This document shows positions 27,765 to 43,457 of a DNA stretch of 64,000 nucleotides, piece after piece. The translations under genes and the position numbers were made by a program. Numbering within the stretch: position 1 is the stretch's first letter; each line of letters opens with the position of its first letter. The DNA is from Bythopirellula sp. (GTDB lineage Bacteria; Planctomycetota; Planctomycetia; Pirellulales; Lacipirellulaceae). The stretch spans positions 576,001 to 640,000 of the forward strand of contig OZ244170.1 in assembly GCA_965216565.1 (NCBI GenBank), in the 5' to 3' direction. The notes under the pieces were generated by a model. It made no database searches and was not told the DNA's origin. It saw only the letters and a list, made by a program, of their open reading frames with translations.

Positions 27765-27849
27765 GGTCGGGTGGCAGAGTGGTCGAATGCACCGGTCTTG
27801 AAAACCGGCGATGGGCAACCATCCGGGGGTTCGAATCCCTCCCCGACCG
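27765..27849 (+). tRNA. tRNA-Ser (anticodon UGA)
   Basis: Acceptor GGTCGGG/CCCGACC+G, anticodon arm CCGGT-CTTGAAA-ACCGG, long variable arm, GGTTCGAATCC T-loop; CCA not encoded. Confidence 0.96.
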
Positions 27850-28010
27850 CTCATTGGCCGCTGGCGACTAACGTAGTGCTAATTTCTTCTAGCTCCGATT
27901 CGTTGATAACAGTATCGTCGCATTGCACTCGGCCGAACTGCACTCGATAGCGGTGGCTGCTCGAATGTTCCGCTATAAAACTCAAACTCTCAAGAACGAA
28001 ACGGACAAGC

Positions 28011-28454
28011 TTACAGTTGGTAGAGGTCTTGTAGCTTGGGAAATCCACAGCGTCCAGAACTACGCCTTATCGATAGAAGTTCGCCAATGGTGCGGCTACC
28101 TAAGAGCTCTTCGATTTTGGCCATAGCGGCGTCGAGTTCAGAATGGAACGGACACAGTTTAGTATGCCCGGCCAAGCCCAGTGGGCAACTGCGAATACGT
28201 TGGATGGGATCGACAGCGTTCAGCACATCAAGAATAGTCAGGTTGTTTGGATCTACCGTGAGAAATACTCCGCCGCCAGTGCCACGTTGTGAACCAACTA
28301 GCTCATTATCGCGGAGCTTATCAATCACCTTTCGTAGATAGGGTGCGTTGACTCGGATCTCTCGCGACATTTCCGGGATCGTGCTCATGCTCTCCGGACA
28401 ATTTGCCAGATGGGCGACAGCACGCAACGCATACTCGGCAGTTTGTGAAAACAG
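28011..28454 (-). CDS. Rrf2-family transcriptional regulator (probable CTG start)
   Basis: In-frame extension (M)FSQTAEYALRAVAHLA, wing SQRGTGGG, CPLG...H..LCPFH cluster-type motif. Confidence 0.88.
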   Translation of the reverse strand: MFSQTAEYALRAVAHLANCPESMSTIPEMSREIRVNAPYLRKVIDKLRDNELVGSQRGTGGGVFLTVDPNNLTILDVLNAVDPIQRIRSCPLGLAGHTKLCPFHSELDAAMAKIEELLGSRTIGELLSIRRSSGRCGFPKLQDLYQL

Positions 28455-28678
28455 TGGACACCTCTAATCTAAGTTAGAACACAGCATCTCTAATGACTAT
28501 AGCCAAGACACCAGCGATATTAGCCATAGGGGCAAACAATGTTGATTGTAGGCCATAGCTCAACTGTGGTCCACAAAGCTCGTAGCCGCTGGCATGAGGT
28601 CTACATGAGAAAGATCCCTTCAAAGATTGTTTGCCGACTGCAAATTGCTCAATTACATGATGCGTTACTATCCCTTGT

Positions 28679-30082
28679 TTAGAAATTTAATTCCCACTGG
28701 GTATAGAAAAAGTCTGCATCAGTCGGTGCAAGAATTTTGTTTCCTCGCCAGAAGTGTGACCAGCCAAATAGTACGTTGGATCGTGGGCCTATCTGATACT
28801 TGGCTATGATATCCAACTCGTCACCTAAATCCTTGCTTGTGATACTCTGTACCGGGGTGCCACCAATGGCAGGCACTACGTCTGAATCTTGATTGGCCAT
28901 TAGGTGCCAATACCAAAACAACAAATTTAGTTTCTCGGTAGGTTTCATGGTTAGTAGCACATTAGGTGATTCAACATTCGAGCGTTGTACTGCGTCGATA
29001 AAACCAAAGTACTTGTGAGCGAGTGGGAAGAGTTGATTGAAACGATTGAAATCGCCACCGATGTTGTTTCCTGAGGCATAGTCATAGTAGAACCACACCG
29101 TAGGCGACCAGGGGAGCATTGCGCTCATCTGCCGGCCAAGACCACACGTGCAGAAGGCCGCTTCGTGGTCGAGACCCAATCCGCTCTGTCGACCAAACTG
29201 AGGTCCACCTTCGAATTCGAATAGCCAATCGTCTAGGCCGCCGTTGATTCGCAGGCCCACCGTATGAAGAGAAAAGTCACCTGATCCTGGTACGGCTCCG
29301 GTAGGATTTTCGTTGTCGTAGCCGATATAGTACGTTTCAATCGAGAAATTCTCGAAGCCATTGTAAGTTGCATAACACCCATAAAAAGGTTGATCGTAGT
29401 CAGCTTCATCTAGATCATTAGGAACGACGGGAACCAGGTGCGTATAGAAGGCGTCAAGAGTCCAGTCTCCAAAGTTCGTCATTACCTTCACACCTTCAAA
29501 AGTCCGACGGACGTTGGCCCAGTCGAGAGGTGAGATAAGACGTTGATTTCCGTAAAGTAATTCTTGGCGTCCGATACGTGCCGACAGAGAATCAGTCAGC
29601 TTTAGTTCGGCAAACAGATTTAGGAAATCGCCGTAGTTGCGGTCAATTGCTCGCGGGGTATAGTTTCCACCATCATCTGATGCTTCAGCCAATATCGCTT
29701 CGGTATAGAACCGCAAACGTTCATTCACTTTCCAATTGCTATACAATCTCAGTCGCGTCAGGACGAAGTCTGTCTCGGTAGGCTGAAAACGTCCGAGTCC
29801 TTGCGATTGTCCCATCCCGCGTTCGTGATGATAGCGCGTGCGGAGCTGACCGCCCAGGTCAAGCGTTCCGTATTCGCCACCTGCCACTGGCATCAGCTTA
29901 AGGCAATCACCAAGGCAACTATCTTGATGAGAGTTGCTCTCGACATAACTGAAGTCATTGTTGAAATACAGTCCCTTGTGTGATGCCGCGCAAGGATTCG
30001 GCTGTGATGAGAACGCTATGTTGGATTCGTTCCAAGTGAATATGATTCCCACCATCAATGCTACGTAAAAAAGTCTTGACAT
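28679..30082 (-). CDS. Alginate-export-family outer-membrane beta-barrel porin
   Basis: Signal peptide, RIGRQELLYGNQRLISPLDWANVRRTFEG, FNQLFPLAHKYFG, C-terminal Phe. Confidence 0.82.
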   Translation of the reverse strand: MSRLFYVALMVGIIFTWNESNIAFSSQPNPCAASHKGLYFNNDFSYVESNSHQDSCLGDCLKLMPVAGGEYGTLDLGGQLRTRYHHERGMGQSQGLGRFQPTETDFVLTRLRLYSNWKVNERLRFYTEAILAEASDDGGNYTPRAIDRNYGDFLNLFAELKLTDSLSARIGRQELLYGNQRLISPLDWANVRRTFEGVKVMTNFGDWTLDAFYTHLVPVVPNDLDEADYDQPFYGCYATYNGFENFSIETYYIGYDNENPTGAVPGSGDFSLHTVGLRINGGLDDWLFEFEGGPQFGRQSGLGLDHEAAFCTCGLGRQMSAMLPWSPTVWFYYDYASGNNIGGDFNRFNQLFPLAHKYFGFIDAVQRSNVESPNVLLTMKPTEKLNLLFWYWHLMANQDSDVVPAIGGTPVQSITSKDLGDELDIIAKYQIGPRSNVLFGWSHFWRGNKILAPTDADFFYTQWELNF

Positions 30083-30097
30083 CGCCGACTCCGCTGA

Positions 30098-30119
30098 AAC
30101 AGAACCTCAAGGTACGCTT
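30098..30119 (-). promoter_or_regulatory. Operator-like 22-mer, copy 1 (upstream of porin)
   Basis: Minus strand AAGCGTA-CCTTGAGG-TTCTGTT. Confidence 0.55.
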
Positions 30120-30265
30120 GGCTAGAATTAGAATCGGGCGTTGCGTCAATTGAAAACAGTTCATCTGTTGCCACCCTAATAGATTGCCTAATAGAACCTC
30201 TGCAAGCGATTCTCGATGCAACTGGCATGGTTGCTCCTGAGGAGGTGTAGCATGCACGACCCAGA

Positions 30266-30304
30266 AAGAGTACCTTGACATCCTGTTGAGGTGATCCGTA
30301 CACT
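30266..30304 (+). promoter_or_regulatory. Operator-like 22-mer, copy 2, overlapping the sigma-70 promoter of the nap operon
   Basis: AAGAGTA-CCTTGACA-TCCTGTT (30266-30287); TTGACA-N18-TACACT. Confidence 0.65.
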
Positions 30305-30441
30305 ATTTGAATGTAAGTTCAGTCTCCAGAAATAGTTAAGTTGTTTCTATGCATGGTGGCCCTAGTTTCATCGCAATACTATCAATAACGACACTGTGGG
30401 CTAGATATTTCAGCTACGAACAAGCCGAGGATTAGCATCCA

Positions 30442-31134
30442 ATGATTCGCGGGGCTGCAAATGTGCATGGGCTCTATCTGGCGATTGGCATGCTAGCGGT
30501 TTGTTCAGGTGCCAGCTGGGTCTTCTACTCCATTTTCGCAGCCAATTCAGAGAATGAGATGCCGACTGGCTATCGGCCAAATGATTCCGCAGTGCTGACG
30601 GAGCAGGTCGAAGCCCCGAGCAAGCAATCCAAATTCCAAATCATAATTCGCAAGCCAGATGGACCACCTCGAATTGATTTAGGGATGATCGATTCAAATG
30701 GTGAGCCCGTGACGGGTGCCTGCTCCACTTGCCATACAACTCGACCTGCGGATCAGGCGAACCGTTCGGTTGCCGATCTCACTGAGTTTCACCAAGAACT
30801 TACCTTTACTCATGGCAACGTAAGTTGCCTCTCTTGTCACAATCCAGAAAACTACGATACGCTGCGGCTAGCAGACGGTAGCGCGGTCGAGTATGCCGAA
30901 GTCATGACGCTTTGCGCCCAGTGCCATGGTCCCCAAACTCGCGACTATCATCATGGTGCCCATGGTGGGATGAACGGCTATTGGGATCTCTCTCTAGGTC
31001 CACGCACTCGCAACAATTGTGTAGATTGCCACGCCCCTCATGCTCCAAGTTTTCCAGCAATGCAGCCAACTTTCAAACCACGCGATCGCTTTCTCACGGC
31101 TGACGATGAGATCGGAACTAAGAGCCATGAGTGA
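30442..31134 (+). CDS. Membrane-anchored or exported tetraheme c-type cytochrome
   Basis: N-terminal hydrophobic segment; CSTCH, CLSCH, CAQCH, CVDCH. Confidence 0.88.
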   Translation: MIRGAANVHGLYLAIGMLAVCSGASWVFYSIFAANSENEMPTGYRPNDSAVLTEQVEAPSKQSKFQIIIRKPDGPPRIDLGMIDSNGEPVTGACSTCHTTRPADQANRSVADLTEFHQELTFTHGNVSCLSCHNPENYDTLRLADGSAVEYAEVMTLCAQCHGPQTRDYHHGAHGGMNGYWDLSLGPRTRNNCVDCHAPHAPSFPAMQPTFKPRDRFLTADDEIGTKSHE

Positions 31135-32107
31135 AAAACAGCCCAATGATGCTCAGAATGCAGCACCGGTCCAGAGTGATGTTCCATTGCTGCCAATTAT
31201 AAACAACGGCTCCTCGACCCGGCGGAATGTCATGAAAGGTGTGGGGCTAACGCTTGGGCTGGCAGCCTTTGGCAAAGCCATCTCGCCATTGGCAACGATT
31301 CCTGAAAATGTTTCGGTCGACGAGTTTCTCCAGCAGCACTACAAAGAACTGACAGAAGAGGAAAAGCAAGAAGTTCTGGCTCGACTAGAATCTGAGACAA
31401 AAGAGAACTACGACGCAGATGTTACCATCACCGATCATCGACCAATTCCCGGTGTGAAGTTCGGCTATGCCATCAATCTCAGCAAATGCAATGGCAACGG
31501 CAAATGTGTTGAGGCCTGTCATCAGGAAAACAACCATGATCGCTCGACAGACGAATCGTACATTCGAGTCCTTGAAATGGATAAAGGTTCGATGGATATG
31601 GAAACGGGCAATACGACGTACGATCACACCGTGCCACAGGACGACAAGTTCTATATGCCGGTGCAGTGCCAACAGTGCGACAATCCTCCTTGTGTGACGG
31701 TCTGCCCTGTCGAAGCGACTTGGAAAGAAGAAGATGGCATCGTGGTCGTCGACTACAACTGGTGCATTGGGTGTCGTTACTGTGAGGCTGCCTGCCCCTA
31801 CCATGCACGTCGGTTCAACTGGGAACAACCGACAATCCCCGCGGAAGAGGTCAATCAGGACCAAAGTTACCTCTCCAACCGCATTCGGCCCCAAGGAGTG
31901 ATGGAGAAGTGCCATTTCTGTTTGCACAGAACCCGCGAAGGTCGGCTACCCGCTTGCTTAGAGGCTTGCCCTACTGGGGCTCGTGTTTTTGGAGATTTGA
32001 ATGACCCTGAGTCGGACATCGTCTGGATTCTAAAGAATAAACGCGTGTTCTTACTCAAAGAGGAATTGGGCACTCAACCGAGCTTCTTTTACTTTTTTGA
32101 TAGCTAA
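31127..32107 (+). CDS. NrfC/DmsB/DsrO-like iron-sulfur protein with Tat-type signal
   Basis: TRRNVMK plus h-region; CNGNGKCVEAC, CQQCDNPPCVTVCP, CIGCRYCEAACP, CHFC...CLEACP; ATG at 31127 overlaps the upstream stop. Confidence 0.9.
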   Translation: MSEKQPNDAQNAAPVQSDVPLLPIINNGSSTRRNVMKGVGLTLGLAAFGKAISPLATIPENVSVDEFLQQHYKELTEEEKQEVLARLESETKENYDADVTITDHRPIPGVKFGYAINLSKCNGNGKCVEACHQENNHDRSTDESYIRVLEMDKGSMDMETGNTTYDHTVPQDDKFYMPVQCQQCDNPPCVTVCPVEATWKEEDGIVVVDYNWCIGCRYCEAACPYHARRFNWEQPTIPAEEVNQDQSYLSNRIRPQGVMEKCHFCLHRTREGRLPACLEACPTGARVFGDLNDPESDIVWILKNKRVFLLKEELGTQPSFFYFFDS

Positions 32108-32122
32108 GTAACCCCCATCAAC

Positions 32123-33412
32123 ATGGCTTTGCCTCACATTACTCATGCCAGTTCGCCACAGTCTGCTCAGCAGCATGATCTGCAAATGCGCAACTATCCG
32201 CGATTCTTGTTGCGGTTGCTGGGTGTGGCCACCGATGGGAGTATTTGGTTTTATGCTTGGATGTTCGCGCTCACAGCCATCTTCTTGGTTGGTGCCAACG
32301 CCTGGGCCGTCCAAGTCGCGGATGGCATGATCGTCACTCACATGACGGATCACGTGAGCTGGGGGCTATACATTGCCAACTTTACATTCGCCGTAGGTGT
32401 TGCTGCCGGGGGAGTGATGATGGTCATCCCTGCCTATCTCTATCACAACAAGAAAATGCACGATGTGGTTATCGTTGGCGAGTTGCTCGCGATTGCCGCG
32501 ATTGTCATGTGCCTGATGTTCGTAACCGCGGACTTAGGACGTCCAGAGCGGTTCTGGCATATGATACCCGGCATAGGGCGATTCAATTTCCCCTTCTCCA
32601 TGCTTACTTGGGATGTATTAGTTCTTAACGGTTATCTGCTGCTTAATCTACACATCTGCGGCTATCTGTTGTACATGCGGTATTTAGGGCGACGCCCAAA
32701 TCCTCGTTGGTATGTGCCATTCGTAATGCTCTCGATCTTCTGGGCCATATCTATTCATACCGTGACTGCATTTCTCTATTGCGGATTGGGGGGCAGGCCA
32801 TTTTGGAATAGCGCATTGCTCGCGCCAAGGTTCTTAGCGAGCGCCTTCGTTTCCGGACCAGCATTTATCATTGTTACGCTATTGATCCTCAGACGCATTT
32901 TGGGGAAACGTATTTCTAACGAACCGATCCGAGTTCTCGTCAACATTGTCCGCGTGACGATAGTGGTCAACCTGATCATGGTTGTGTCAGAAGTCTTTAC
33001 GGAATTCTATTCTGGTGGGAGCCATACCGCTTCAGCCCGGTATTTGTTTTTAGGGCTTCATGGACATGACGCTTTAGTACCATGGATGTGGACTGCCATT
33101 GTTGGCAACATTCTTGCTGCCGGTTTGTTTCTCTCGCCGTTGGTTCTTCGTCGAGCCACCATCTTAGTTGTTGCCTGCGGCCTTGCTTTTGTCGCTGCTT
33201 GGATTGAAAAGGGCATGGGATTGATCGTGCCTGGGTTCGTCCCTAGCACCTTGCACGAAATTGTCGAGTATCAACCAAGCTTGATGGAATGGAAGGTTAC
33301 TGCAGGCGTTTGGGCGTTTGGGCTGATGATTTACACAATCGGGCTAAAGGCCGCGGTGAATGTGTTTGTGGTAAGCCCAGAACAGGCGCTGGAGAATTTT
33401 TCAAATGATTAG
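32123..33412 (+). CDS. NrfD/PsrC/DsrP-family integral membrane quinol-interacting subunit
   Basis: WGLYIANFTF, DLGRPERFWH, SIHTVTAFL, APRFLASAF; about ten TM segments. Confidence 0.9.
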   Translation: MALPHITHASSPQSAQQHDLQMRNYPRFLLRLLGVATDGSIWFYAWMFALTAIFLVGANAWAVQVADGMIVTHMTDHVSWGLYIANFTFAVGVAAGGVMMVIPAYLYHNKKMHDVVIVGELLAIAAIVMCLMFVTADLGRPERFWHMIPGIGRFNFPFSMLTWDVLVLNGYLLLNLHICGYLLYMRYLGRRPNPRWYVPFVMLSIFWAISIHTVTAFLYCGLGGRPFWNSALLAPRFLASAFVSGPAFIIVTLLILRRILGKRISNEPIRVLVNIVRVTIVVNLIMVVSEVFTEFYSGGSHTASARYLFLGLHGHDALVPWMWTAIVGNILAAGLFLSPLVLRRATILVVACGLAFVAAWIEKGMGLIVPGFVPSTLHEIVEYQPSLMEWKVTAGVWAFGLMIYTIGLKAAVNVFVVSPEQALENFSND

Positions 33413-33689
33413 CGGACTAGTAGTGACCCTGAGTTCAGAAGCTGAACTATCAGAATCAGCAATACGCTCAATTCAGCAGCAGCCAGCTCTCGAAGTCGGT
33501 CCTCAAGATCAACGACGTCTACCTCTGGTGCTGGAAACGAACAGTCACACGGAGTCTCAGGAAATCACCGACTGGCTCACTAGTCTGCCGGGAATCGAGT
33601 TTGTCGACGTAGCATTTGTTCATTTGGATGATGTCCAGGATGACGTACTGATAGACGCACCGCCTCAAACAGTAATAAATCGCAGTTGA
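33405..33689 (+). CDS. napD: NapD-like chaperone
   Basis: ISGLVV...LVLET...LPGIEFVDVAF; immediately upstream of napA. Confidence 0.75.
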   Translation: MISGLVVTLSSEAELSESAIRSIQQQPALEVGPQDQRRLPLVLETNSHTESQEITDWLTSLPGIEFVDVAFVHLDDVQDDVLIDAPPQTVINRS

Positions 33690-33699
33690 GAATCTGATC

Positions 33700-36090
33700 A
33701 TGCAACAGAACCGCCGCAGTTTTATACGCTCTACGGCTATGAGTGCCGCCACAGCGATTGCCTCTGGCACGGGAACCTTTTCGTTACCCATCCTCAATGC
33801 TTCTGAGGCTTCTTCGATCGAGTGGAACAAAGCGCCCTGCCGATTCTGCGGCACAGGTTGCCACGTTCAGGTAGGAGTCCAGCAAGGGCGTGTTGTTGCA
33901 GTTGCGGGCGATCAAGATGCTGAGGTGAATCAAGGCCTGCTGTGCGTCAAAGGTTACCATGTTGGCTCGGCCCTCTATGGTGAAGATCGATTGACGCAGC
34001 CTCTACTCCGACGTGGAGACAAATACGAAGCTATCTCATGGGATCAAGCTCTAGAGGTGATAGCGGATAGAATCGAAGGAGCACCGGAGCGTTTTGCCTT
34101 TTATGGATCGGGGCAGTGGACCATTCCCGAAGGCTACATTGCGCAAAAGTTCATGAAGGGAGGATTGGCCAACAACCATATCGACCCCAATGCGCGACTC
34201 TGTATGGCGTCGGCAGTTACCGGATTCTTGGCTACATACGGCGTTGATGAACCAGCCGGGTGTTACGACGATCTCGATAAGTGCGACGTATTGATTATGT
34301 GGGGCAACAACCCGGCCGAAATGCACCCGGTGCTATTCTCTCGGGTAGTTGATCGTCGCTCACGTGGCGAACAGGTCGAGTTGATCGATATTGGTACTCG
34401 TCGAACACGCACCACAGAACAATGCCAGCACTATCTGGAAATGAAGGGTCACGGCGACGTTGCCATTGCCCTGGGGATTGCCCATCTACTGATCAAGGAG
34501 AACACCTACGACCATAGATTTGTCGAGTCTTTTTGCAACTTTAAGGCACCTGATCCTGATAACCCCAATTTGCATGGTAAGTCGATTACATTCGACGAGT
34601 ACAGACAAAGTTTGGAATCTTACACTCCGGAACATGTCGAAAAACTGTCCGGGGTGCCTGCCGACAAGATTCGCATGCTGGCCAAGTTATTTGGGAATCC
34701 TGACCTCAGAATTACTTCGCTGTGGTGCATGGGCATGAACCAACACACGATGGGCACTGCGGTCAACTCCTTGGTCCATGGTGTCCATTTACTTAGCGGG
34801 CACTTTGGAAGGGCGGGCGATGCACCAACTAGCTTGACAGGGCAGCCATCGGCCTGCGGTACGGTGCGAGAGGTCGGCACGCTAGCTCATGCGTTACCTG
34901 GTGGGCGATTGGTTGCCAAGCCAGAACATCGACAGCAGTGTGAAGCTTATTGGAATCTTCCCGCGGGTAAGATCAATCCTCGCCCAGGCTATCACACCGT
35001 GAAGATGTGGGAACAGTTCTGCACGTCAAGCTCCGAGGGTGGCGATATTGACACGATCTGGGTGCAAGTCACGAACCCCGGTCAGACTTTGCCGAATCTC
35101 CACAAACTATTTAACGCCAAAGAGGGGCTCGAAAATAAGTTCTTGATCGTCTCCGATGTCTATCCAACTGCCACGACAAGATTGGCTGATTTAATATTGC
35201 CTTCCGCTATGTGGGTAGAAAAAAACGGGATGGTAGGAAACTCAGAACGCCGTACACAGCAATGGTTCAAAATGGTGGAGCCACCCGGGGATGCACGCGA
35301 CGACGTATGGCAAACCTTGGCTGTGGCTCGCCGACTATTCGAGCGTGGTTTTGCTGGAATGCAAGACAAAGAGGGTAGTTTTCTCTTTGAAGTCTTTGAC
35401 GAATTCGGATCTGTGGTGCCCGCCTGGCGGTGGGAGAATTTCTATGATGTAAATGTCGACAAGCATCTGTTCGAAGAGTATCGGCAATTCACGCGTCTGA
35501 AACATAAAGACTTAGCTCCGTACGAAGAGTACGTCAAAGCGCGAGGGATGCGTTGGCCAGTCGTTGAACAACCCAACGGCACTTGGGAGGAGACCCGATT
35601 CCGATTTGTTGAAGGCGAAGATCCCTATGTCGAGACTGGGGCTGACATTCAATTCTACCATTCTTCGACCAACGACAATCGCGCACAGCTATGGTTTCAT
35701 CCTTACGAGCCTCCTGCTGAGTTGCCGGACGAGACTTATCCGTTGATGATGACCACCGGTAGGGTGTTGGAACATTGGCACTCAGGCTCAATGACTCGTA
35801 GGATACCAGAGTTAAGCGGGGCGATGCCTGCCGCTTATGTTGAAATGAATCCAGAAGATGCCAGGCAACGCAATGTCAACAACGGCGATCTCGTCACTAT
35901 TCGGTCTCGTCGTGGCGAAATGCAAATAACGGCTTGGATCAACGGACGTGGTCGTCCACCCCGTGGCACCGTCTTTGTGCCGTTCTTTGATGAGACGCTC
36001 CTGATTAACGAATTGACTCTGGATGCACTTGATCCATTTTCTAAACAGCCCGATTACAAGAAGACTGCCGTTGAGATTGTGAGGGTCTAG
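33700..36090 (+). CDS. napA: Periplasmic nitrate reductase catalytic subunit
   Basis: Tat NRRSFIR; CRFCGTGC...LCVKG [4Fe-4S]; NARLCMASA Mo ligand; SLTGQPSACGT; TGRVLEHWHSGSMT; DPFSKQPDYKK. Confidence 0.96.
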   Translation: MQQNRRSFIRSTAMSAATAIASGTGTFSLPILNASEASSIEWNKAPCRFCGTGCHVQVGVQQGRVVAVAGDQDAEVNQGLLCVKGYHVGSALYGEDRLTQPLLRRGDKYEAISWDQALEVIADRIEGAPERFAFYGSGQWTIPEGYIAQKFMKGGLANNHIDPNARLCMASAVTGFLATYGVDEPAGCYDDLDKCDVLIMWGNNPAEMHPVLFSRVVDRRSRGEQVELIDIGTRRTRTTEQCQHYLEMKGHGDVAIALGIAHLLIKENTYDHRFVESFCNFKAPDPDNPNLHGKSITFDEYRQSLESYTPEHVEKLSGVPADKIRMLAKLFGNPDLRITSLWCMGMNQHTMGTAVNSLVHGVHLLSGHFGRAGDAPTSLTGQPSACGTVREVGTLAHALPGGRLVAKPEHRQQCEAYWNLPAGKINPRPGYHTVKMWEQFCTSSSEGGDIDTIWVQVTNPGQTLPNLHKLFNAKEGLENKFLIVSDVYPTATTRLADLILPSAMWVEKNGMVGNSERRTQQWFKMVEPPGDARDDVWQTLAVARRLFERGFAGMQDKEGSFLFEVFDEFGSVVPAWRWENFYDVNVDKHLFEEYRQFTRLKHKDLAPYEEYVKARGMRWPVVEQPNGTWEETRFRFVEGEDPYVETGADIQFYHSSTNDNRAQLWFHPYEPPAELPDETYPLMMTTGRVLEHWHSGSMTRRIPELSGAMPAAYVEMNPEDARQRNVNNGDLVTIRSRRGEMQITAWINGRGRPPRGTVFVPFFDETLLINELTLDALDPFSKQPDYKKTAVEIVRV

Positions 36091-36117
36091 TCCGCTGATT
36101 TTCTGTAGAAGTCCAAG

Positions 36118-36972
36118 ATGCCCGTAGATTTGAAAGAAGCTCCAGCCCAACATCACACCGCTCGGCAATCTCCCGAGTCGATGGGGTTTGTGCGGCGATA
36201 CACCGCCCTCATCGCGTCTGTGCTGTTTGGTGCTGCCACCACTGGTTATTTTTTAGGGCTGACGTCTCCTATGACTGCCAACAAGGAGCGTGTAGCTCCC
36301 GTGAGCTCTGCCACACGCACAGAGGTGGAAGTCTATGCTGATCGTAAAGTGATTCCGGCTACCGCGTATGCAGACATGGCGAAATATGTTCGAGGGTCAA
36401 CTCAGAGGGAATCAATGCAACTCGCCAACTTGCGTCAGGAGCCATACGACTTGTTTGCAAACAGGACCATTGATGAAGCAGAGAAGTCTAAATCATTGGC
36501 TCAACGCGAAACACGCCGCGCCTACGATGGAGCTCCTCCGACCGTTCCTCATCCTGCAGACCAGCTCAGCTCAGCTGCTTGCATGGCTTGCCACGGTGAG
36601 GGCCTGAAGAGTAAGAGTCTTCGAGCAGGAAAGATGCCACATCCCTATTATGCTAATTGTATGCAGTGTCACGTCGAGCAGGACGGAGACTTTACCATTG
36701 CGTCGGCAGACTTTGAAAACACTTTTGTTGGCGTCACAGCTCCGACTAGCGGCAGTCGTGCCTATCCGGGAGCTCCGCCAGTCATTCCACACAGCACTTG
36801 GATGCGAAGCGACTGCTTGAGCTGTCATGGTCGCACTTCAGCTCCTGGTATGGAGTCAACACATCCCTGGCGCACCAATTGTTTGCAATGTCATGTGGAG
36901 TCTTCCATGCTGAACCAAAATCCGCAGACAAATCCCCCTTTGTTTCTGCCTGCCCCGGAGATCGTGAGATAG
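36118..36972 (+). CDS. napB: NapB-like cytochrome with two tandem NapB-type units (four hemes)
   Basis: RAYDGAPPTVPH..CMACH..H..CMQCHV and RAYPGAPPVIPH..CLSCH..H..CLQCHV; N-terminal TM segment. Confidence 0.85.
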   Translation: MPVDLKEAPAQHHTARQSPESMGFVRRYTALIASVLFGAATTGYFLGLTSPMTANKERVAPVSSATRTEVEVYADRKVIPATAYADMAKYVRGSTQRESMQLANLRQEPYDLFANRTIDEAEKSKSLAQRETRRAYDGAPPTVPHPADQLSSAACMACHGEGLKSKSLRAGKMPHPYYANCMQCHVEQDGDFTIASADFENTFVGVTAPTSGSRAYPGAPPVIPHSTWMRSDCLSCHGRTSAPGMESTHPWRTNCLQCHVESSMLNQNPQTNPPLFLPAPEIVR

Positions 36973-36974
36973 CT

Positions 36975-37409
36975 ATGAGCAACGAGAAACCACAACTCTC
37001 ACGTCGTGATTGGTTCCGGCTGGGTAAGTCTGCCTCTCGACGACCCAACCAGAAGAGATTGGGTAGCAAGCAGCCTGCGGGAATGCATTCAGTCGCTGAA
37101 CCCGTGAATCATGGTGGAGTCGATCTCTCGACGTTACCTCCAATGCACGAAGCAATACTTGACTCGCAGGATGTTACATCATTATTTGCCGACATCGAGC
37201 AGCATGGCTCCGACATAACATTGATTTTCCGTCGGGCAGCCGGGAATGCACCCGATCAAACTGATAAGCTCAAGATAGCACTAAACCAAATTCTCAATGG
37301 AAACGTCCGTAAATTGCAAATTCGCTACCATTGGGAAAATGCAAATTGGATCGACACACTAGAAACCCAGTCTAACGGATTCCGTCTGGTTCGAATCCAG
37401 CATGGTTAG
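36975..37409 (+). CDS. Hypothetical protein ending the nap operon
   Basis: ATG 2 nt after the napB stop; SRRDWFRL motif without hydrophobic region. Confidence 0.7.
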   Translation: MSNEKPQLSRRDWFRLGKSASRRPNQKRLGSKQPAGMHSVAEPVNHGGVDLSTLPPMHEAILDSQDVTSLFADIEQHGSDITLIFRRAAGNAPDQTDKLKIALNQILNGNVRKLQIRYHWENANWIDTLETQSNGFRLVRIQHG

Positions 37410-37582
37410 AAATAGAACACTCATCTATCTAGATTGCCGCAGTTTTTAGTCCCACATGCCCACCTCTCTCTGTTTGCTACAGAATTTGTACGACTAACTC
37501 GCCGCACTCAGGCTGAAGAGTGTTTGGCAGATAAATGACGGAAGCAAACCTTTTTTTACACTTGGAAGAATTCGAGCATTCA

Positions 37583-37604
37583 AACAGTACCTTGACATAC
37601 TGTT
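37583..37604 (+). promoter_or_regulatory. Operator-like 22-mer, copy 3 (perfect arms), on the -35 box of the globin operon
   Basis: AACAGTA-CCTTGACA-TACTGTT. Confidence 0.7.
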
Positions 37605-37693
37605 ATATTACTCCTACAAATAGAATAAGAATTAAGGCCGGTTGTTTTGCCCCCATCTCTCGCCTTTTAGAACTGTCAATAACACATAGGTAA

Positions 37694-38104
37694 TTGACTG
37701 TGTTGCCTCCAGACCTAGATTCAGTCACTCATAGCTATCATCGTTGCCTTAGTAGCGAAAGATTTCTCGATACCTTCTACGAGAAGTTTTTAGGCAAGTC
37801 AGATGAAATTGCTTCGAAGTTTCGCCTGACCGATTTTGATCGGCAGAAACGCATGTTGCGAGAATCGTTGCTAATGATGGTCATGTTCAATCGTGACCCC
37901 GAAATGCTCGAAGAGGATATGACTGCACTTGCTACGCGTCATGGTCGCCAAGGAGTTGATATTCCTGCCAGGCTCTACGCGCACTGGCTTGACGCATTGT
38001 GTGAGGCCGTAAAAGAGCACGATCCACAATATTCGGCCGATATCGGCATGAAGTGGCGGAAAGCCATGGAGCAGGGGATTAAGTTCATAATCTCGAGATA
38101 TTAA
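37694..38104 (+). CDS. Single-domain globin
   Basis: FYEKFL..S.EI..KF..TDF.RQ.RML, proximal His in RHG, LY..WLDAL, W..AM..GI. Confidence 0.82.
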   Translation: MTVLPPDLDSVTHSYHRCLSSERFLDTFYEKFLGKSDEIASKFRLTDFDRQKRMLRESLLMMVMFNRDPEMLEEDMTALATRHGRQGVDIPARLYAHWLDALCEAVKEHDPQYSADIGMKWRKAMEQGIKFIISRY

Positions 38105-38117
38105 TGTGGGGTGCACT

Positions 38118-38567
38118 ATGAAGAAAGATGCTCATTTCCATTCTGTTACTGCAACTCAAGTCGATCAGGAACACGAAGAACTCCGCGAACTACTCGGAGC
38201 AATCCACAAGAGCCTGACGACCGACAATCCCTCACCCGCTCAGGTTAGAGAACAGCTTGTAGTGTTGTGTAACAATTTGGAATCGCATTTTCAAACGGAA
38301 GAGAATGCCGGCTTTTTTACTGAGATTACCGAGAAGGCTCCTCGCCTCTGTAATCAAGCAGACAAGTTGACTCATGAGCATGAGTCAATGTTGGAAGAGG
38401 CCCGAGCACTCACAAACTTAGCGCTTCGATGTACTGAACCAGAAAGCCTCAGCAACGAAGTGCTGCCCATGTTTCATGAGTTTAGCAAGCACCTGATGCA
38501 CCATGAGAGTGAAGAAAATGAAATGATGCAGAAGGCGTACTGGGACGACATAGGATCTGGAGACTAA
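38118..38567 (+). CDS. Hemerythrin-domain protein
   Basis: EHEEL, HFQTEE, EHESM, HHESEENE His/Glu di-iron pattern. Confidence 0.85.
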   Translation: MKKDAHFHSVTATQVDQEHEELRELLGAIHKSLTTDNPSPAQVREQLVVLCNNLESHFQTEENAGFFTEITEKAPRLCNQADKLTHEHESMLEEARALTNLALRCTEPESLSNEVLPMFHEFSKHLMHHESEENEMMQKAYWDDIGSGD

Positions 38568-38577
38568 GGGGATAGTC

Positions 38578-38775
38578 ATGGCTTGTATCCATTTGCAGCA
38601 ACTCTATCAGCTATGCCAAAAGCACGACTTGCATTTCAGTAGTTCTGATCTCGTTCGTATCATTTGCAAGGAATGCGACTCTGAAGAAACGTGTCCTACA
38701 CTATTAACTGAAATTTCAATTTCCAGGAATGAAAGCGATCAATCGGAACCTCCCCACAAGGTTGAGTCACCCTAA
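38578..38775 (+). CDS. Small Cys/His-rich hypothetical protein
   Basis: MACIHL..LYQLC...CKEC...ETCP; AAGGGG RBS; closely follows the hemerythrin gene. Confidence 0.65.
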   Translation: MACIHLQQLYQLCQKHDLHFSSSDLVRIICKECDSEETCPTLLTEISISRNESDQSEPPHKVESP

Positions 38776-39042
38776 AACCGAACTTTCAAGGAGCGGAAGC
38801 GGAAGAGTTTTAGCGTCGCGGGAGAATGGAGGTAATCCGTCCTTAACGATGTCGGAAAAAGAATGTGCCGCCCTGAACTACCGCAACGAACTAATTCTTA
38901 ATGTGGGTGCGTCTAACCTCGACGTTCTTGCCAATGGCAAGATCGCCGCATTCGAATGTCCCAGTTGGTCGACCAGCAACATCGCTTTAATGTGGCCCAT
39001 TGTGGATCCCCTCTCGCCATGTTGCTGAGCTAGTAAGCTAGT

Positions 39043-40005
39043 TCATTCTTGCTCAGGATTAGAGCGGATGCTGGTGTGATAGGCGCTTGGAAAGTCATCA
39101 GGAATTGGTTGTGTGACTTTGCCTGTGGCTGCCCATTCTGTCCCGCGTTGAAGAGTGGCGATAAATCCCACGTTTTGAACTGCTGGAGCATTGGCGTCTT
39201 GTTCTGCACCGACATGCCCTAACGTTGTATGGAATACGCGGCCTTTACCATAAGAGACTGTAAAAAGCATCGGCTCATTGTGCGGTGATGCTCCTCGCAA
39301 TCTTTGATCTGCGAAGCCCGTCGCCAAAATGGTTACATTCCTCGCCGGCCCACGAAGATTCGAGTACACCTCATCTTTCCCATGCAACCACATCTCAGGC
39401 AATCCTTGAGTAATAGGATGATTAGGATCTCTAACAGTGATCAGGAAATCATGTCTCGGAGGATGTCCCGCTCCTCCCTTGGAATTGTCGCGAACGAGTT
39501 TTCCCTTCTGCCAATAGATGCGCGGTCCCCAAGTCTCATTGCGGCTTGAGGATTGGCTCGAAATACCTGGGTAAAGCGGAGGATCATAGAGTGACGGGCC
39601 TCCCCAGCCTCCGACGCCCGTCATCTCGAGAAATTCCGGCCAATAGGCGAAGGAATTGTTGGTCGCGTGAACGCAAACCAATCCTCCTCCGTCGCGCATA
39701 TAATCGACGAAAGTTGCTTTGGTTGCCTCAGCCCATTCCTCACCATCGTAGTCTAAGACGACGACATCATAGGCGCTCCAAGTAGGAGCAAAACCTCCGA
39801 GGTCTTCCCCAGGTGCGGGAGCAATCACTTTTTCGACCTTAAAGATACCAGCGTCTTGTAGATGCTGCTCAATTGCAGCACTCGTTCCCCTCCAATTATG
39901 GTACTTATTGGATCGACCAGTGAGCAGCAACACTTCGATGTCTTCGCTCGCCACACTCACCGACGCAAGTGTGGTGAGAAAGAAGACTAAGATAAAAATT
40001 CTCAT
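39043..40005 (-). CDS. Exported ThuA-like domain protein
   Basis: Signal peptide; HNW, GGGLVCVHA, HPITQGLP, DEVY, YGKGRVFHTTLGH, RGTEWAATG. Confidence 0.85.
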   Translation of the reverse strand: MRIFILVFFLTTLASVSVASEDIEVLLLTGRSNKYHNWRGTSAAIEQHLQDAGIFKVEKVIAPAPGEDLGGFAPTWSAYDVVVLDYDGEEWAEATKATFVDYMRDGGGLVCVHATNNSFAYWPEFLEMTGVGGWGGPSLYDPPLYPGISSQSSSRNETWGPRIYWQKGKLVRDNSKGGAGHPPRHDFLITVRDPNHPITQGLPEMWLHGKDEVYSNLRGPARNVTILATGFADQRLRGASPHNEPMLFTVSYGKGRVFHTTLGHVGAEQDANAPAVQNVGFIATLQRGTEWAATGKVTQPIPDDFPSAYHTSIRSNPEQE

Positions 40006-40289
40006 TGTTGTGATGAATCAACTTTCTGTAGGCAGAATCAAATTGAGAACTGAATAGCACGGCCAGGACATTCCAGATATCGAATTGTAGAGAATCCAAT
40101 CGGTTAACAGCAACTAGTATTCTATATAGCTAGCCACAAGCTAAGGACGAATTGCACCAAAAATTTAGTGAGGGAACCTTAACGCGAATTCGAGACGCCG
40201 AGACCAGATTCCCTGCGATGGGTCTTAATGGACTTTTAGGTCTAACCCTAAATCACTAGGAAGAGGCACTGCCGAAAGCTAGTAGTATG

Positions 40290-40315
40290 TGACGCCATAG
40301 AATGACGCCATAGAA
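40290..40315. repeat. 13-bp tandem direct repeat
   Basis: TGACGCCATAGAA x2, followed by a degenerate third copy. Confidence 0.6.
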
Positions 40316-40453
40316 ACTGATGGCAATAGTCAGCAATCGCAGAAACACCAAGCTGCCGAAGCATGTATCACTAAGGGTAGATCGGGGGGCAAAGCTCCTT
40401 GAAGCCCAATCTAAGTTCCTCGGGTTGTTGTTTTCGGAAGCGTAGTCGCTTAT

Positions 40454-43327
40454 TCAGATGCCTTGAGGCTTAACGTCTAGCACTGGGTCAACGACCAAAA
40501 TCTCGTTCACTTTGTCTGTGAAAAGACTCTCATAGGGGATCAAGGCAGAAGGTGTGCGGCTATTTTCGTCAAGTTCGCTCAACACGCAGGCTTCGCCGTT
40601 GAGTCGGATCTCTCGCTCCGCTACGTCTTCAAAAGACTGAGCAATACGAACCTGTTTGCCGTGAGCGATTCCCGAAAATTCGAGTGATTGGAAAGGATGC
40701 CACTGGGCAGGAGAGATGCATAAGGAATCTAGACCGGGCTGGAACCCAAAAACATATCGAACTAACAATTTGAGAAGCACATTAGAACAGCCCGTCTGCC
40801 AGTCATTCATGCTTTGACCTTTGAGGTCGAGTTGAGGGTTGTCCACGTAGGAGTTCGGCATCACGAACGTAGAATGGCTTGGCGACTTGTGGTGCGAAGA
40901 AAACGGGAGGATCTTTTCAATCTGTTTCCAAGCCTGATGTGCTTCACCAAGTTTGAATAGTGCAGCAATAGCAAATGTAGTTGCGTGCACATACACAGCC
41001 CCATTCTCGGCCGTACCGCGGGGAAGCTTGGATATGCGGCCAACACCTGGCGCGTCCGAGGCAAAGCCTGGGGCAAAAGTCCTTAGTCCAAACTTGGAAT
41101 CCAGTGATTCGAAAGCCCGTAGAATATCCGCCCTTAACGTGGGGTCTTGATCAAGCATTCCTGATAAAATCCAAAAAGCATTGGAGGTGAGTCCATCACG
41201 CGAAAGTCCATCACTGTCGCAGAAACTACCTACTAGATAGGAACGCTTGTCCCCCCAGCCATGCAAGACTTTTCTTTGCTTGTCCTTCTCGACAATCGCA
41301 TAGTCCAGCAATCCTTGGAGTAATTGTTTTTGGAGCTTTTTATACCGTAGTAAATCGTCGGCGTATGATTCGGAATATGTATGCTGAAGTATATCTATGA
41401 TCTCCGAGCAGCAGTTGTAAAGCTGCAAGCTAGTCATAACGCTGACGCCAGTACCAAATGCCTTGGCGGGATCGCTTGAGATCCCCAAGCCATCGAGTGC
41501 ATCGTTCCAATCGCCATACAAAGCAAATACCAGTCCGGTTTCAGGATCGCAGTTGGCAGCCAGATAGTCCATGATTCGAATCAGATGGTCCAGCACGGAA
41601 TCGATCTCCGCGGACTGAACGATCGTAGCCCCGTCCGTAGGGGATGGGTGGTGGTATCCAACGCGTTGTTTTAGTAATGCCAAGTCTCCAGTCACAGACA
41701 GGTAACTATGCACCGTCGAGATCGCCCAAACTCCTTGGTCAATAAATTCCCGTAAATCAGCCTGGCCGGGATTTCCATTGACCGGTAGTGAATATTGACG
41801 GGGACATCGGCCATCGACCAGAACATGAGCTAAGACTTCGAGTAGCTTCTCTCTGGACTCGTCTGGCTGATCAAGGAGATGTCCTTCGATGGCCTGTAGA
41901 ACATCTCGGAAGCCGATTAACGAATTGGCCGAGGGGTGCATGTAGCCCTTTAGCAGTGCGCACACGGCAACCTGCTTCTTGAGGAAGGGCAGGAATTTGT
42001 TGAAAGTCTTGGCATTTATGTCCAATTGGCTCTTACCTTGAACTTTGAGTTCAAGTTGCCCAGATTGGTGAGCAGTCGATTTGGCAGACGCAAACGCTAA
42101 ATCGACATCGCAGGAAGAGAGCGGTCGATCTAGTTCAATTTCCAACACTTCCAAGCTATCTGGAGTAGAGAAAATATGGTCTCCCCGGAAATAGCAGTTA
42201 GCTGGCAAAGTCATTCGAGCAATGTTTGCCACGACGGCGTTCTCTTTGAAGACCGTCATCGGAACTTCCTGAGCAACTCTACCTGTTTCTAGAAACTCCG
42301 CTGTATTAAGACTGCGTCTAGTCGATCCAATGAGTGCCAAGCGAGAAGTGCATACTTGCGAGTGAATTTCTGTGGCTGCATTTGAAGGGTTTTGTGGACT
42401 GCCATTCTGAGCCTTAATCGATAAAGGTAGGAAAGCTCCAGTAGTTGCATCCCGTATACTCACTGCGCGCCTCAGGAGTGCATAGTTGCTAATCGACTGG
42501 AAACGATCGACGTCTTCGGTAGTCGTAATGACAAATGGTGGCAACACAGCGCCGGCGTCAGGATCACTGACTGCTGTCGCACCGGTTCGGAGTGAAGAGG
42601 TGTCGACATGGATTTTCTTGAACCAGCAGTCTTCATTAGTTTCTACGAATCGATGACGACAGAATGGGTTCATGTATGCTGCTGCAAAGGTTTCTAGAGG
42701 CCCATTGGTCTTGTTTTCAATAAGAACGGAGAATTTGATATGGACATGGTTTGGACGGGATTGATCAACAAAGACACGCACCGCACTCAGTATCTCCGGA
42801 GTCTCAGAAATGAAATAAGTAGCGTCGTGACCGATCACCGTGTAGCGGTCGACTACCTTAGATTCACCACTTTCCACGAAGGGCGTCGGCAATAAAGCAT
42901 GGGATGTGAAGGATGCCTGCCCAACAGGACGTACTCCAGCAAAAAAAGAGATAGGGGGATCTTGACCTTCTTGGGTAGGAAGAAACAAGAAGTAGAGGCC
43001 CTGGTTGCCGTGCATGGCTCCTGAGGCATTTATCCAGAAATTGAAACCTTCCGATCCGTAGGGATAACGGCTATCACCTTGTGTTCGTTCCCTGCACAGA
43101 ACTCGACCGTCCTCTAGAAAGGCCACATTACCCGGCAAACGAGGCGATTGGCCTTCCCTAATGGCAGATTCGCACAAATCTACTTGTTCACGAAGTAGAC
43201 GTACTTGTCCCCGAAACTGCAGTTCTTCAGGAATTGACGTCGAATCGCCTGGCTGGTCGGGCGTGCTTGGTCGTCGGAGGGCATCGAGGTGAGGCATGCT
43301 GTCGATCTTGGTACCAGTTGGATTCAA
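40454..43327 (-). CDS. GH94-like glycoside phosphorylase
   Basis: GFRDVLQ, YGDWNDALD (catalytic Asp), ENGAVYVHA, WQTG; no signal peptide. Confidence 0.8.
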   Translation of the reverse strand: MNPTGTKIDSMPHLDALRRPSTPDQPGDSTSIPEELQFRGQVRLLREQVDLCESAIREGQSPRLPGNVAFLEDGRVLCRERTQGDSRYPYGSEGFNFWINASGAMHGNQGLYFLFLPTQEGQDPPISFFAGVRPVGQASFTSHALLPTPFVESGESKVVDRYTVIGHDATYFISETPEILSAVRVFVDQSRPNHVHIKFSVLIENKTNGPLETFAAAYMNPFCRHRFVETNEDCWFKKIHVDTSSLRTGATAVSDPDAGAVLPPFVITTTEDVDRFQSISNYALLRRAVSIRDATTGAFLPLSIKAQNGSPQNPSNAATEIHSQVCTSRLALIGSTRRSLNTAEFLETGRVAQEVPMTVFKENAVVANIARMTLPANCYFRGDHIFSTPDSLEVLEIELDRPLSSCDVDLAFASAKSTAHQSGQLELKVQGKSQLDINAKTFNKFLPFLKKQVAVCALLKGYMHPSANSLIGFRDVLQAIEGHLLDQPDESREKLLEVLAHVLVDGRCPRQYSLPVNGNPGQADLREFIDQGVWAISTVHSYLSVTGDLALLKQRVGYHHPSPTDGATIVQSAEIDSVLDHLIRIMDYLAANCDPETGLVFALYGDWNDALDGLGISSDPAKAFGTGVSVMTSLQLYNCCSEIIDILQHTYSESYADDLLRYKKLQKQLLQGLLDYAIVEKDKQRKVLHGWGDKRSYLVGSFCDSDGLSRDGLTSNAFWILSGMLDQDPTLRADILRAFESLDSKFGLRTFAPGFASDAPGVGRISKLPRGTAENGAVYVHATTFAIAALFKLGEAHQAWKQIEKILPFSSHHKSPSHSTFVMPNSYVDNPQLDLKGQSMNDWQTGCSNVLLKLLVRYVFGFQPGLDSLCISPAQWHPFQSLEFSGIAHGKQVRIAQSFEDVAEREIRLNGEACVLSELDENSRTPSALIPYESLFTDKVNEILVVDPVLDVKPQGI

Positions 43328-43421
43328 TGTATACTGCTATGCAGTTGGCCAGGATCGATGTAAATCCTTACTGCATAATGCATGAGGGCCACATCTGGCC
43401 TGGACTTGCAGTGTTGCAATC

Positions 43422-43452
43422 TTGCGTTACTTCGCATACTTAATTAAGATAC
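43422..43452 (+). promoter_or_regulatory. Promoter/operator copy A (ROK gene)
   Basis: TTGCGT-N17-TAAGAT with core ATACTTAATTAAGATAC (43436-43452). Confidence 0.7.
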
Positions 43453-43457
43453 ATTCT

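Follow-up and report, generated by a model that had tools for sequence, protein, structure and literature searches.

Results

A nap operon with its own putative quinol oxidase

We analysed a 64,000-nucleotide stretch of Bythopirellula sp. (GCA_965216565.1, contig OZ244170.1, positions 576,001–640,000; hereafter the window, coordinates 1–64,000), in which seven plus-strand genes between positions 30442 and 37409 encode, in order, a tetrahaem cytochrome c, an iron-sulfur (Fe-S) protein, an NrfD-type membrane subunit, NapD, NapA, a tandem NapB and an open reading frame (ORF) of no known family. Judged from its genes and motifs, this operon is a real, intact and widespread non-canonical form of the periplasmic nitrate reductase (Nap) system, parts of which are already in print. 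In the textbook system, electrons from quinol enter through NapC or NapGH. We favour a reading in which the first three gene products (hereafter the trio) would replace NapC or NapGH as the dedicated quinol oxidase of the nap operon: the NrfD-type anchor would oxidise quinol, the Fe-S protein would conduct the electrons from cluster to cluster, the tetrahaem cytochrome would dock at the far cluster and accept them, and they would then pass to the tandem NapB and on to NapA. We place the probability of this chain at roughly three in four. It draws on the genes, their motifs and spacing, their linkage across phyla, a promoter element and a modelled contact between the tetrahaem cytochrome and the Fe-S protein, with quinol oxidation and transfer from the tetrahaem cytochrome to NapB as its inferred steps. 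An earlier note on this DNA had proposed such an alternative chain into a double NapB and NapA, and as a prediction it is now well supported by linkage, by the distribution of NapH and by co-folding.

The intergenic gaps across the operon are, in order, -8, 15, -8, 10, 27 and 2 bp; the tight seven-gene operon described in that note was therefore borne out, with all genes in place and overlaps or gaps of at most 27 bp. NapA aligned over its full length with C. necator NapA (3ML1; E 2e-210), including the CRFCGTGC, CVKG, RLCMASA and GQPSACG motifs, which we take to cover the [4Fe-4S] cluster motif, the conserved Lys and the Mo-ligating Cys, and its sequence begins with a twin-arginine (RR) leader. 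Its scores against two curated NapA models were 870.8 (cut-off 904) and 837.4 (cut-off 930.55), and the next family reached 450.7. A genome-wide PF00384 search returned 2 matches, with NapA the sole plausible exported molybdoenzyme; among cofactor genes, MoaA scored above its cut-off and a MobA-like gene below. The tandem NapB has an N-terminal membrane anchor and keeps its four CxxCH motifs in 65/65 aligned sequences. By these features the operon appears to encode an intact Nap, together with its NapD and NapB partners.

The trio travels with one branch of NapA

At least 584 NrfD relatives were confirmed among 600 candidate stretches, of which the best 80 were kept and those alone checked for nap genes. 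Beside NrfD in these loci we found the Fe-S gene in 80/80, the tetrahaem gene in 77/80 and the tandem NapB in 62/80. napA lay near the trio in 67/80 loci by any match and in 66/80 above 100 bits; 11 of the 14 loci without it have less than 3 kb of upstream sequence and another (L005) has 4.7 kb. Of the neighbourhood that the earlier note had suggested looking for, napA with NrfD but without NapC/NapH, the napA-NrfD pairing was found repeatedly (for NapC and NapH, see below). napA is divergent from the trio in 63/66 loci and co-linear in three only (L001, L002 and L003); the co-linear order is local. The pairing itself appears common in several phyla. In Flammeovirga kamogawensis, a 640-kb plasmid record (NZ_CP076130.1; L173:4033-10212) carries the order napD-napA-tandem napB-tetrahaem-FeS-NrfD.

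Among 40 relatives, the NrfD gene occurred in exactly the same 4 genomes as a NapA of at least 77% identity, and was adjacent to it every time. Five others of the 40 carry a 50-53% identical NapA without the NrfD gene, and in four of these (L094, L096, L097 and L098) a cytochrome of 7-8 haems and cytochrome b- and Rieske-like ORFs (named from motifs) lie beside napA. These four loci represent a second NapA clade from the same order, which was never found together with the NrfD trio among the 40.

A phylum-wide draw that was not selected for nap covered 121 genomes of the phylum of genome G016; 29 matched the DsrP model, and 29 of the 32 matches (27 genomes) were fetched. napA adjoined NrfD in 12/12 loci at 64% identity or more. 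At 52-56% identity, six loci had an octahaem gene, napA or both; nine loci at 44-48% and one at 42% had no napA in the fetched stretch; and one trihaem-linked locus (L133, 40%) resembled true DsrJOP. In a 109-row NrfD tree, limited to stop-free rows with at least 80% cover, the close group formed a 94-row clade (Shimodaira-Hasegawa-like approximate likelihood ratio test, 97) with 81 nap-linked rows; the DsrJOP-like L133 fell outside it on a long branch of this unrooted tree. Since the distant trios adjoin octahaem or other multihaem genes, mostly without napA, the trio is a general plug-in of which one branch travels with Nap.

Other electron routes in the genomes that carry the trio

The host genome (5.2 Mb, 94% complete) was searched for other routes. 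The earlier note's remark that no napC, napG, napH or nitrite reductase lies in the window held: none was found in the region of the block formed by the operon and its flanking genes (no search aimed at NirK or NirS was made), and the sole NapC/NrfH-family gene of the genome, which scores as NrfH (164.3 vs 134.2), sits with nrfA at C1:3114259-3116406, 2.5 Mb from the block and outside the window. That note had also raised napC or napGH elsewhere in the genome; a NapC-family protein does exist in the form of this NrfH, but it stands beside nrfA, and NapH-type PF12801 had no match in the host genome. NrfA (C1:3114259-3115791; L082:1501-3015) has five CxxCH motifs and is of the type without the usual CxxCK. 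The genome has nrfHA besides Nap and therefore a gene set for nitrate to nitrite to ammonium; nitrite would go to this separately encoded NrfHA, in nitrate-to-ammonium respiration or redox balancing. NorB was not found, the host having a single COX1-family gene. Further multihaem cytochrome frames (4 to 10 CxxCH) lie at C1:3369937-3382428, 2820148-2824770 and 4458840-4461092.

We likewise searched genome-wide the genomes of 50 nap-linked loci, picked for longer contigs and mostly metagenome-assembled genomes (MAGs) of unstated completeness. NapH scored above its cut-off in 0/50. Full-length NrfA was present in 30 and missing from 20, and NrfH adjoined nrfA in 29/30. No NapC/NrfH-family match was obtained in 13/50, including the complete chromosome of Poriferisphaera sp. 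WC338, while 7/50 had such a match without a full NrfA; one of these (G028) may be a stand-alone NapC-type gene. Five of the 13 genomes without NapC/NrfH were tested for the bc-type cytochrome b family PF00033, and none had it. All 13 hold a second NrfD-family gene, probably ActC.

Composition of the trio and its altered cluster

The membrane and Fe-S subunits belong, by their model scores, to the DsrO/DsrP branch and not to NrfC/NrfD proper. Of the double labels in the earlier note (NrfC/DsrO-like and NrfD/DsrP-like), the Dsr halves stood, as both proteins passed the DsrO and DsrP cut-offs, and the Nrf halves, in the sense of NrfC/NrfD proper, did not; the Fe-S protein reached 127.1 against the NrfC model (cut-off 377.6). 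This protein aligns to PsrB/NrfC 2VPW; its twin-arginine pair and 15 cluster Cys are invariant. The NrfD-type subunit, the predicted quinol-oxidising anchor, is the sole NrfD-family gene of the genome, and its nearest solved relatives are ActC. A sulfate-reduction reading of the DsrO/DsrP scores was rejected: the genome has no dsrA match, the cytochrome is tetrahaem and not trihaem, and the subunit falls in a separate clade. Neither a trihaem DsrJ nor dsrM or dsrK, the context of DsrMKJOP, was found in the operon.

The tetrahaem cytochrome, which has 3,610 relatives at E<=1e-5, keeps four CxxCH motifs and four more invariant His in 75/75 aligned sequences. Its likeness to NrfH (probability 42%) and to NrfB (E 1e-5) is weak; Foldseek found no match for its fold, and the best Z, for a haem-free model, was 2.7. 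A small cupin-like ORF is frequent inside or next to the trio (11/80 loci by tblastn, including L001, L005, L008, L012, L028, L029, L033 and L077).

In the first Fe-S motif, CNGNGKC, the second Cys is replaced by Asn124. Among 79 homologues this position is Asn in 43 and Cys in 36, and the state changes twice on a 107-row Fe-S tree built with the motif masked. On the NapA tree, the loci with the Asn-type protein fall together in a single clade of 41 rows (support 95). CNGN is also present in related nap-less trios with a nine-haem cytochrome (L146, L148, L151, L155 and L159), where the Cys-to-Asn change seems to have arisen a second time. The NrfD proteins of eight loci (L063, L067, L073, L074, L076, L078, L080 and L160) group with Cys-type loci, whereas in the NapA tree, which includes six of the eight, their NapA joins the Asn-type loci; this suggests exchange of the membrane subunit. 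In other enzymes, a missing second Cys yields a [3Fe-4S] cluster; the change here would give either a [3Fe-4S] or an Asn-ligated cluster.

We co-folded the Fe-S protein with the tetrahaem cytochrome and four haems, leaving out NrfD, NapB and the Fe-S clusters. The pair scored 0.91, compared to 0.00 for the best of 3 controls; in calibration the mark was reached by 116/157 solved complexes and 2/215 mismatched pairs, counts that are only rough for the present job. The runs shared at least 92% of contacts, with a partner predicted local distance difference test of at least 88. The predicted interface joins N122, G123, N124, G125, K126, C281 and P282 of the Fe-S protein to cytochrome residues 164-214, the region of the fourth haem motif. 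In PsrB and FdnH, the cluster most distant from the quinone site is bound by the first three Cys of the first motif together with the final Cys of the fourth, and the same ligand pattern presumably applies here. The docking position predicted for the tetrahaem cytochrome is thus the first-motif loop, and the cluster there is predicted to be membrane-distal. An interface at this cluster would put the cytochrome in the place of a catalytic subunit, at the end of a linear, NrfBCD-like wire whose exit point would be the altered, Asn-type cluster. We dropped the idea of the Asn cluster as a dead end because the predicted interface mapped onto it.

Layout, accessory genes and a shared promoter element

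Features of the block are listed in Table 1. Gene calls agreed with the earlier note in placing porin and Rrf2 genes on the minus strand, divergent from the operon, and a globin, hemerythrin-like (HHE) and Cys-rich unit downstream; this unit starts 284 bp 3' of the operon and has internal gaps of 1 and 10 bp. In read assemblies, a run X4 contig, which may come from the source sample, covers 27781-41000 with zero differences, and a single contig of run X5, from a separate study, joins napB to the globin unit (36578-41000); run X6 has hardly any cover across the globin and hemerythrin genes and proves nothing. The closest relatives are Bythopirellula and Adhaeretor records. Within the genus the module is patchy (4/24 genomes) and has another genomic position in relatives; two same-genus genomes have clpB and the tRNA-Ser, with no module in the fetched stretch. 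A genomic island at the tRNA-Ser was unsupported: no duplicated tRNA end was found nearby, and no integrase-like start was noticed among the printed long ORFs, which were not family-scanned. Downstream of the block (39043-44591) lies a sugar-use region with a ThuA-like gene, a GH94 glycoside phosphorylase and a ROK regulator, and no sign of a link.

Table 1. Features in and beside the block (window coordinates; aa, amino acids; Tat, twin-arginine translocation).
Feature	Coordinates	Strand	Remarks
tRNA-Ser(TGA)	27765..27850	+	ARAGORN; left neighbour of block, probably outside it
Rrf2-family regulator	28011..28451	-	PF02082 89 bits; TIGR00738 above cut-off; candidate regulator of block
Outer-membrane porin, alginate-export (AlgE-like)	28679..30082	-	PF13372 (Alginate_exp) 211 bits
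19-bp element AGTACCTTGACATCCTGTT	30269..30287	+	upstream of operon; includes -35 box of best sigma70-like promoter, TTGACA-18-TACACT
Membrane-anchored tetrahaem cytochrome c	30442..31134	+	4 CxxCH, N-terminal hydrophobic segment; third subunit of module
Tat-type four-cluster Fe-S protein, DsrO/NrfC/PsrB family	31127..32107	+	326 aa; NCBIfam DsrO 202.7 bits (cut-off 200)
NrfD-family membrane subunit, DsrP branch	32123..33412	+	PF03916 126.7 bits; DsrP 425.8 (cut-off 350); 10 hydrophobic segments
NapD chaperone	33405..33689	+	PF03927 E 5.2e-5, below cut-off; homologue in 56/80 loci, conserved beside napA
NapA periplasmic nitrate reductase	33700..36090	+	catalytic motifs intact; best models are NapA
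Tandem (double) NapB	36118..36972	+	PF03892 in two stretches, 49.2 bits; 4 CxxCH; hydrophobic segment 30-48
nap-linked ORF	36975..37409	+	conserved, no known family; homologue in 46/80 loci
19-bp element, second copy	37586..37604	+	upstream of globin; 18/19 identical to copy at 30269
Single-domain globin	37694..38104	+	homologue of P. aeruginosa PA3967; phmmer E 2.8e-24 to PDB 1TU9; no Pfam match
Hemerythrin-like HHE protein	38106..38567	+	PF01814 45.2 bits; H23, H61xxxE65, H92, H132xxxE136
Cys-rich ORF, 65 aa	38578..38775	+	63% identical homologue beside module in L002

The nap-linked ORF matched no Pfam or NCBIfam model; a fold search gave no clear match (best Z 6.7), and the Atlas only an unnamed cluster (0.88). 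The ORF and seven of its 46 homologues (L001, L002, L006, L010, L011, L016 and L017) carry an SRRDWF-type, twin-arginine-like leader, and none of these seven loci has a NapF/NapG-like ferredoxin gene; 32/46 have the ferredoxin without the leader, and 7/46 have neither. Because the leader was seen only in loci without the ferredoxin gene, it probably derives from an internally deleted gene of that kind that became fused to the ORF. The ferredoxin itself is encoded on the nap strand in 43/80 loci, missed both cut-offs in each of four scanned examples and is absent from this lineage.

Among the accessory genes, the Rrf2 protein scored below the curated models for NsrR (44.5, cut-off 182) and IscR (46.1, cut-off 207.55), and its Cys89, Cys100 and His103 are invariant in 32/32 aligned homologues. 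Globin residues 9-136 align to 1TU9, with His83, which we take to be the haem ligand, opposite a His. The HHE protein scored 32.6 against the bacteriohemerythrin model (cut-off 84) and has two HxxxE motifs, presumably the hemerythrin-like pattern; judged by model score and a complete His/Glu/Asp ligand set, it does not qualify as an oxygen-carrying bacteriohemerythrin. Neither it nor the porin has a solved relative by sequence. The Cys-rich ORF was found in 4/300 other Planctomycetota genomes, near nap genes in none. A second Rrf2 (49% identical, C1:5130369) and a second hemerythrin-like gene (33%, C1:1055633) have unrelated surroundings.

The earlier note had counted porin and Rrf2 as parts of the module. 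They proved optional: an Rrf2 homologue occurs in 34/80 loci, and a porin homologue in 16/80 and in 4/29 further loci, at varying positions; nitrate entry through the porin is our inference. As the same note had it, putative NO- and O2-handling proteins are packaged with the chain under one regulator. This was borne out in part only: a shared promoter element links the globin unit to the operon, but the globin, hemerythrin and Cys-rich genes are present in only 1, 0 and 1 of the 80 module loci. The porin, Rrf2, globin and hemerythrin-like genes are additions specific to this lineage, which low oxygen or nitrosative stress probably induces together with the operon.

The two copies of the 19-bp element were matched by no pair closer than 3 mismatches in 500 shuffles. 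The genome contains just 2 exact matches to the element and 5 sites within 3 mismatches, the third of them just upstream of the porin gene; its 10-bp core occurs 8 times and is intergenic only at the two element sites. In L002, where the gene order is different and the globin 24% identical, the globin and tetrahaem genes are each preceded by that locus's own exact 17-bp repeat with the common core ACCTTGAC (shuffles gave at most 12 bp); in genome G059, a search that allowed up to 2 mismatches gave these two sites only. Joint control of the operon and the globin unit is supported by these two repeat pairs, and Rrf2 is a candidate binder of the 19-bp element. Across 16 related loci a symmetric palindrome matrix scored at best 9.8 (vs 34), with no strong site, and the regions upstream of the nrfH, rrf2 and porin genes had none either; a degenerate element pattern had fewer matches than its reversed control in 6 genomes; and the TTGAC core lies upstream of the tetrahaem gene in only 14/100 loci, several times within rrf2 coding sequence.

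Discussion

Relation to known systems

The present system shares with canonical Nap a NapA with intact Fe-S and Mo-Cys motifs, NapD, NapB-type haem domains and, in many relatives, a ferredoxin. In contrast to the canonical forms (NapAB with NapC, and NapAB or NapM with NapGH), it has no linked NapC or NapH, a membrane-anchored four-haem tandem NapB, and the trio as input. E. coli NrfBCD likewise feeds a soluble periplasmic reductase through a multihaem cytochrome, a four-cluster protein and an NrfD anchor; here, the cytochrome is tetrahaem and not pentahaem, the anchor is of the DsrP branch with 10 helices, the acceptor is NapAB and the operon has no nrfA. Unlike alternative complex III (ACIII), the operon has no pentahaem ActA, no molybdopterin-like domain on the 326-aa Fe-S protein and no ActD, E or F.

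By composition, the three genes match the trio of the Cbc4/dsrOhPh type, with an anchored tetrahaem, a four-motif Fe-S protein and a DsrP-branch membrane subunit. By their published descriptions, Geobacter sulfurreducens Cbc4 (CbcS/CbcT/CbcU) has an anchored bis-His tetrahaem, a four-cluster Fe-S protein and an integral membrane subunit, and the cable-bacteria dsrOhPh-tetrahaem locus has DsrO and DsrP homologues with a His-His tetrahaem apart from dsrMKJ (PMC13047784). For Cbc4 a route from quinol to periplasmic cytochromes was proposed, with CbcS passing electrons to PpcA (10.1101/2025.04.14.648717); Cbc4 is not known to have a dedicated acceptor, and CbcS is ~160 aa with an NrfH/CymA-like haem core. 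The dsrOhPh proteins form a clade separate from canonical DsrP that also occurs in non-sulfur bacteria; the passages on that locus give no nap link and assign no function, and cable bacteria add a small TMH1 gene (PMC13047784).

Similar layouts have appeared in print. Passages of PMC10732223 describe a similar cluster that adjoins nap in the MAGs OFTM8 and OFTM33, group it with ACIII-like clusters and propose nitrite reduction or general electron transfer; OFTM33 is our locus L012 (NrfD 75% identical, divergent nap, porin and Rrf2), so the trio-nap layout had already been drawn. Part of PMC5276818 reports a four-gene NrfD locus beside napMADGH, with NapGH and a Hao-like partner. The trio as Nap donor is not proposed in the passages of either paper. 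A NapA-NrfD operon with NarK and an assimilatory nitrite reductase is known here by description (PMC6995999), PMC11896075 concerns, in the part at issue, an NapGH system, and passages of PMC12254169 and PMC10541342 hold no nitrate-respiration data. Table 1 of the NrfD review PMC8076601 lists no nitrate-reducing NrfD complex. In a literature search with most subscription journals and supplements outside its scope, we found no bench study of the trio-nap pairing. As to whether the architecture was already characterised, a point of novelty in the earlier note, it is widespread and has been mentioned for two MAGs in the parts of the literature just cited, but no bench test was found. The present analysis adds a predicted docking position on the altered cluster, a bc-type input that alternates with the trio, and a promoter element common to the operon and the globin unit.

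Weighing the alternatives

Several observations weigh against the trio as dedicated donor to Nap. The host NrfH and two bc-type cytochromes b could also feed Nap, the NapG/NapF-like ferredoxin could join the chain in the 43 loci that have it, and the second NrfD-family gene in each of the 13 module genomes without a NapC/NrfH match leaves unproven that the trio is their sole quinol oxidase. L004 and L048 are real exceptions, as the 9 kb to each side of them contain no napA. More distant trios (NrfD 42-56% identical) adjoin octahaem or other multihaem genes, and the sequence fetched around 13/16 of them was free of napA. Congruence among the NrfD, Fe-S and NapA trees is moderate, with only 24-26/75 splits shared (rho 0.41-0.61, without a species tree as control). 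NrfD, NapB and the clusters were absent from the co-folded set, whose pass may come from likeness to solved complexes. The model also puts the haem-4 region at the Fe-S protein, which would sit uneasily with CbcS if the proteins are homologous; haem IV of CbcS is called the exit gate by the authors of that study (10.1101/2025.04.14.648717).

We consider it unlikely that Nap is mainly fed by NrfH, a bc complex or ACIII, with the trio as a co-regulated quinol oxidase that serves a different acceptor, for instance NrfA or an octahaem nitrite reductase. nrfHA and the two cytochromes b are present in the host, nrfHA lies inside 4/80 loci, related trios occur in octahaem operons, a locus proposed for nitrite reduction in part of PMC5276818, and passages of PMC10732223 suggest a nitrite-reductase role for similar clusters. 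However, the 20/50 module genomes without full-length NrfA, the adjoining NrfH that NrfA has of its own in 29/30, and the lack of PF00033 cytochrome b in the five genomes tested argue against this reading, as do the translational coupling of the trio to napD here and its tracking of one NapA clade. We give little credence to direct docking of NapA on the Fe-S protein, as PsrA docks on PsrB, in a three-subunit membrane molybdoenzyme with the cytochromes as side branches. The Fe-S/NrfD pair is a standard anchor of such enzymes (PMC8076601, in part), and Fe-S and NapA distances were the best correlated of the three pairs (rho 0.61), but the tandem NapB is kept in 62/80 loci with all four haem motifs, and in the model, run with the tetrahaem only, that protein occupies the first-cluster face. 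Hardly any credence goes to an ACIII-like side exit from a membrane-proximal cluster to the cytochrome, with Cys-to-Asn marking a decaying dead end. The kinship of the membrane subunit to ActC and the naming of the cable-bacteria homologues as candidate ACIII (PMC13047784, in part) suit it; the predicted interface on the altered loop does not, nor does a fixed CNGN motif with about two origins on the Fe-S tree, as opposed to scattered decay, nor the lack in the operon of an ActA-, D-, E- or F-like gene or a fused molybdopterin domain. A sharper form of the donor reading, in which the trio would be a third, proton-translocating Nap quinol oxidase, a linear wire with a high-potential [3Fe-4S] exit cluster retuned by the Cys-to-Asn change and facing the tetrahaem, strikes us as doubtful. 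For the shared element, it is quite possible, at somewhat below even odds, that it is no regulator site but a -35 promoter fragment that was duplicated and left behind in a rearrangement, and that the globin unit has nothing to do with nitrate metabolism: the element overlaps TTGACA, the right half of its palindrome is weak, the symmetric matrix found no strong site in related loci, and the three genes of the unit are rare at module loci, the Cys-rich one occurring elsewhere without nap. Against this stands L002, with its own 17-bp repeat before the globin and tetrahaem genes despite another gene order.

Significance

How quinol reaches NapA in bacteria without NapC or NapH is stated to be an open question in a passage of PMC12285233. 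The trio offers a concrete candidate answer for hundreds of genomes, going by the NrfD relatives counted above, with cultured carriers such as Adhaeretor mobilis HG15A2, Roseiconus nitratireducens JC645 and Poriferisphaera sp. WC338, and would give a function to a family left open in the cable-bacteria and Geobacter papers. Its membrane subunit passes the DsrP model, and the RefSeq name of the NrfD in the Flammeovirga nap operon is 'sulfate reduction ... DsrP', so genome surveys can wrongly infer sulfur respiration. If the sharper, proton-translocating form of the donor reading is true, the Cbc4/dsrOhPh family would gain its first defined acceptor, and in the present lineage an uncharacterised Cys2-His Rrf2 sensor would co-induce the system with a globin and a hemerythrin-like protein. 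Nap respiration would then be energy-conserving in many planctomycetes, verrucomicrobia, acidobacteria and Bacteroidota.

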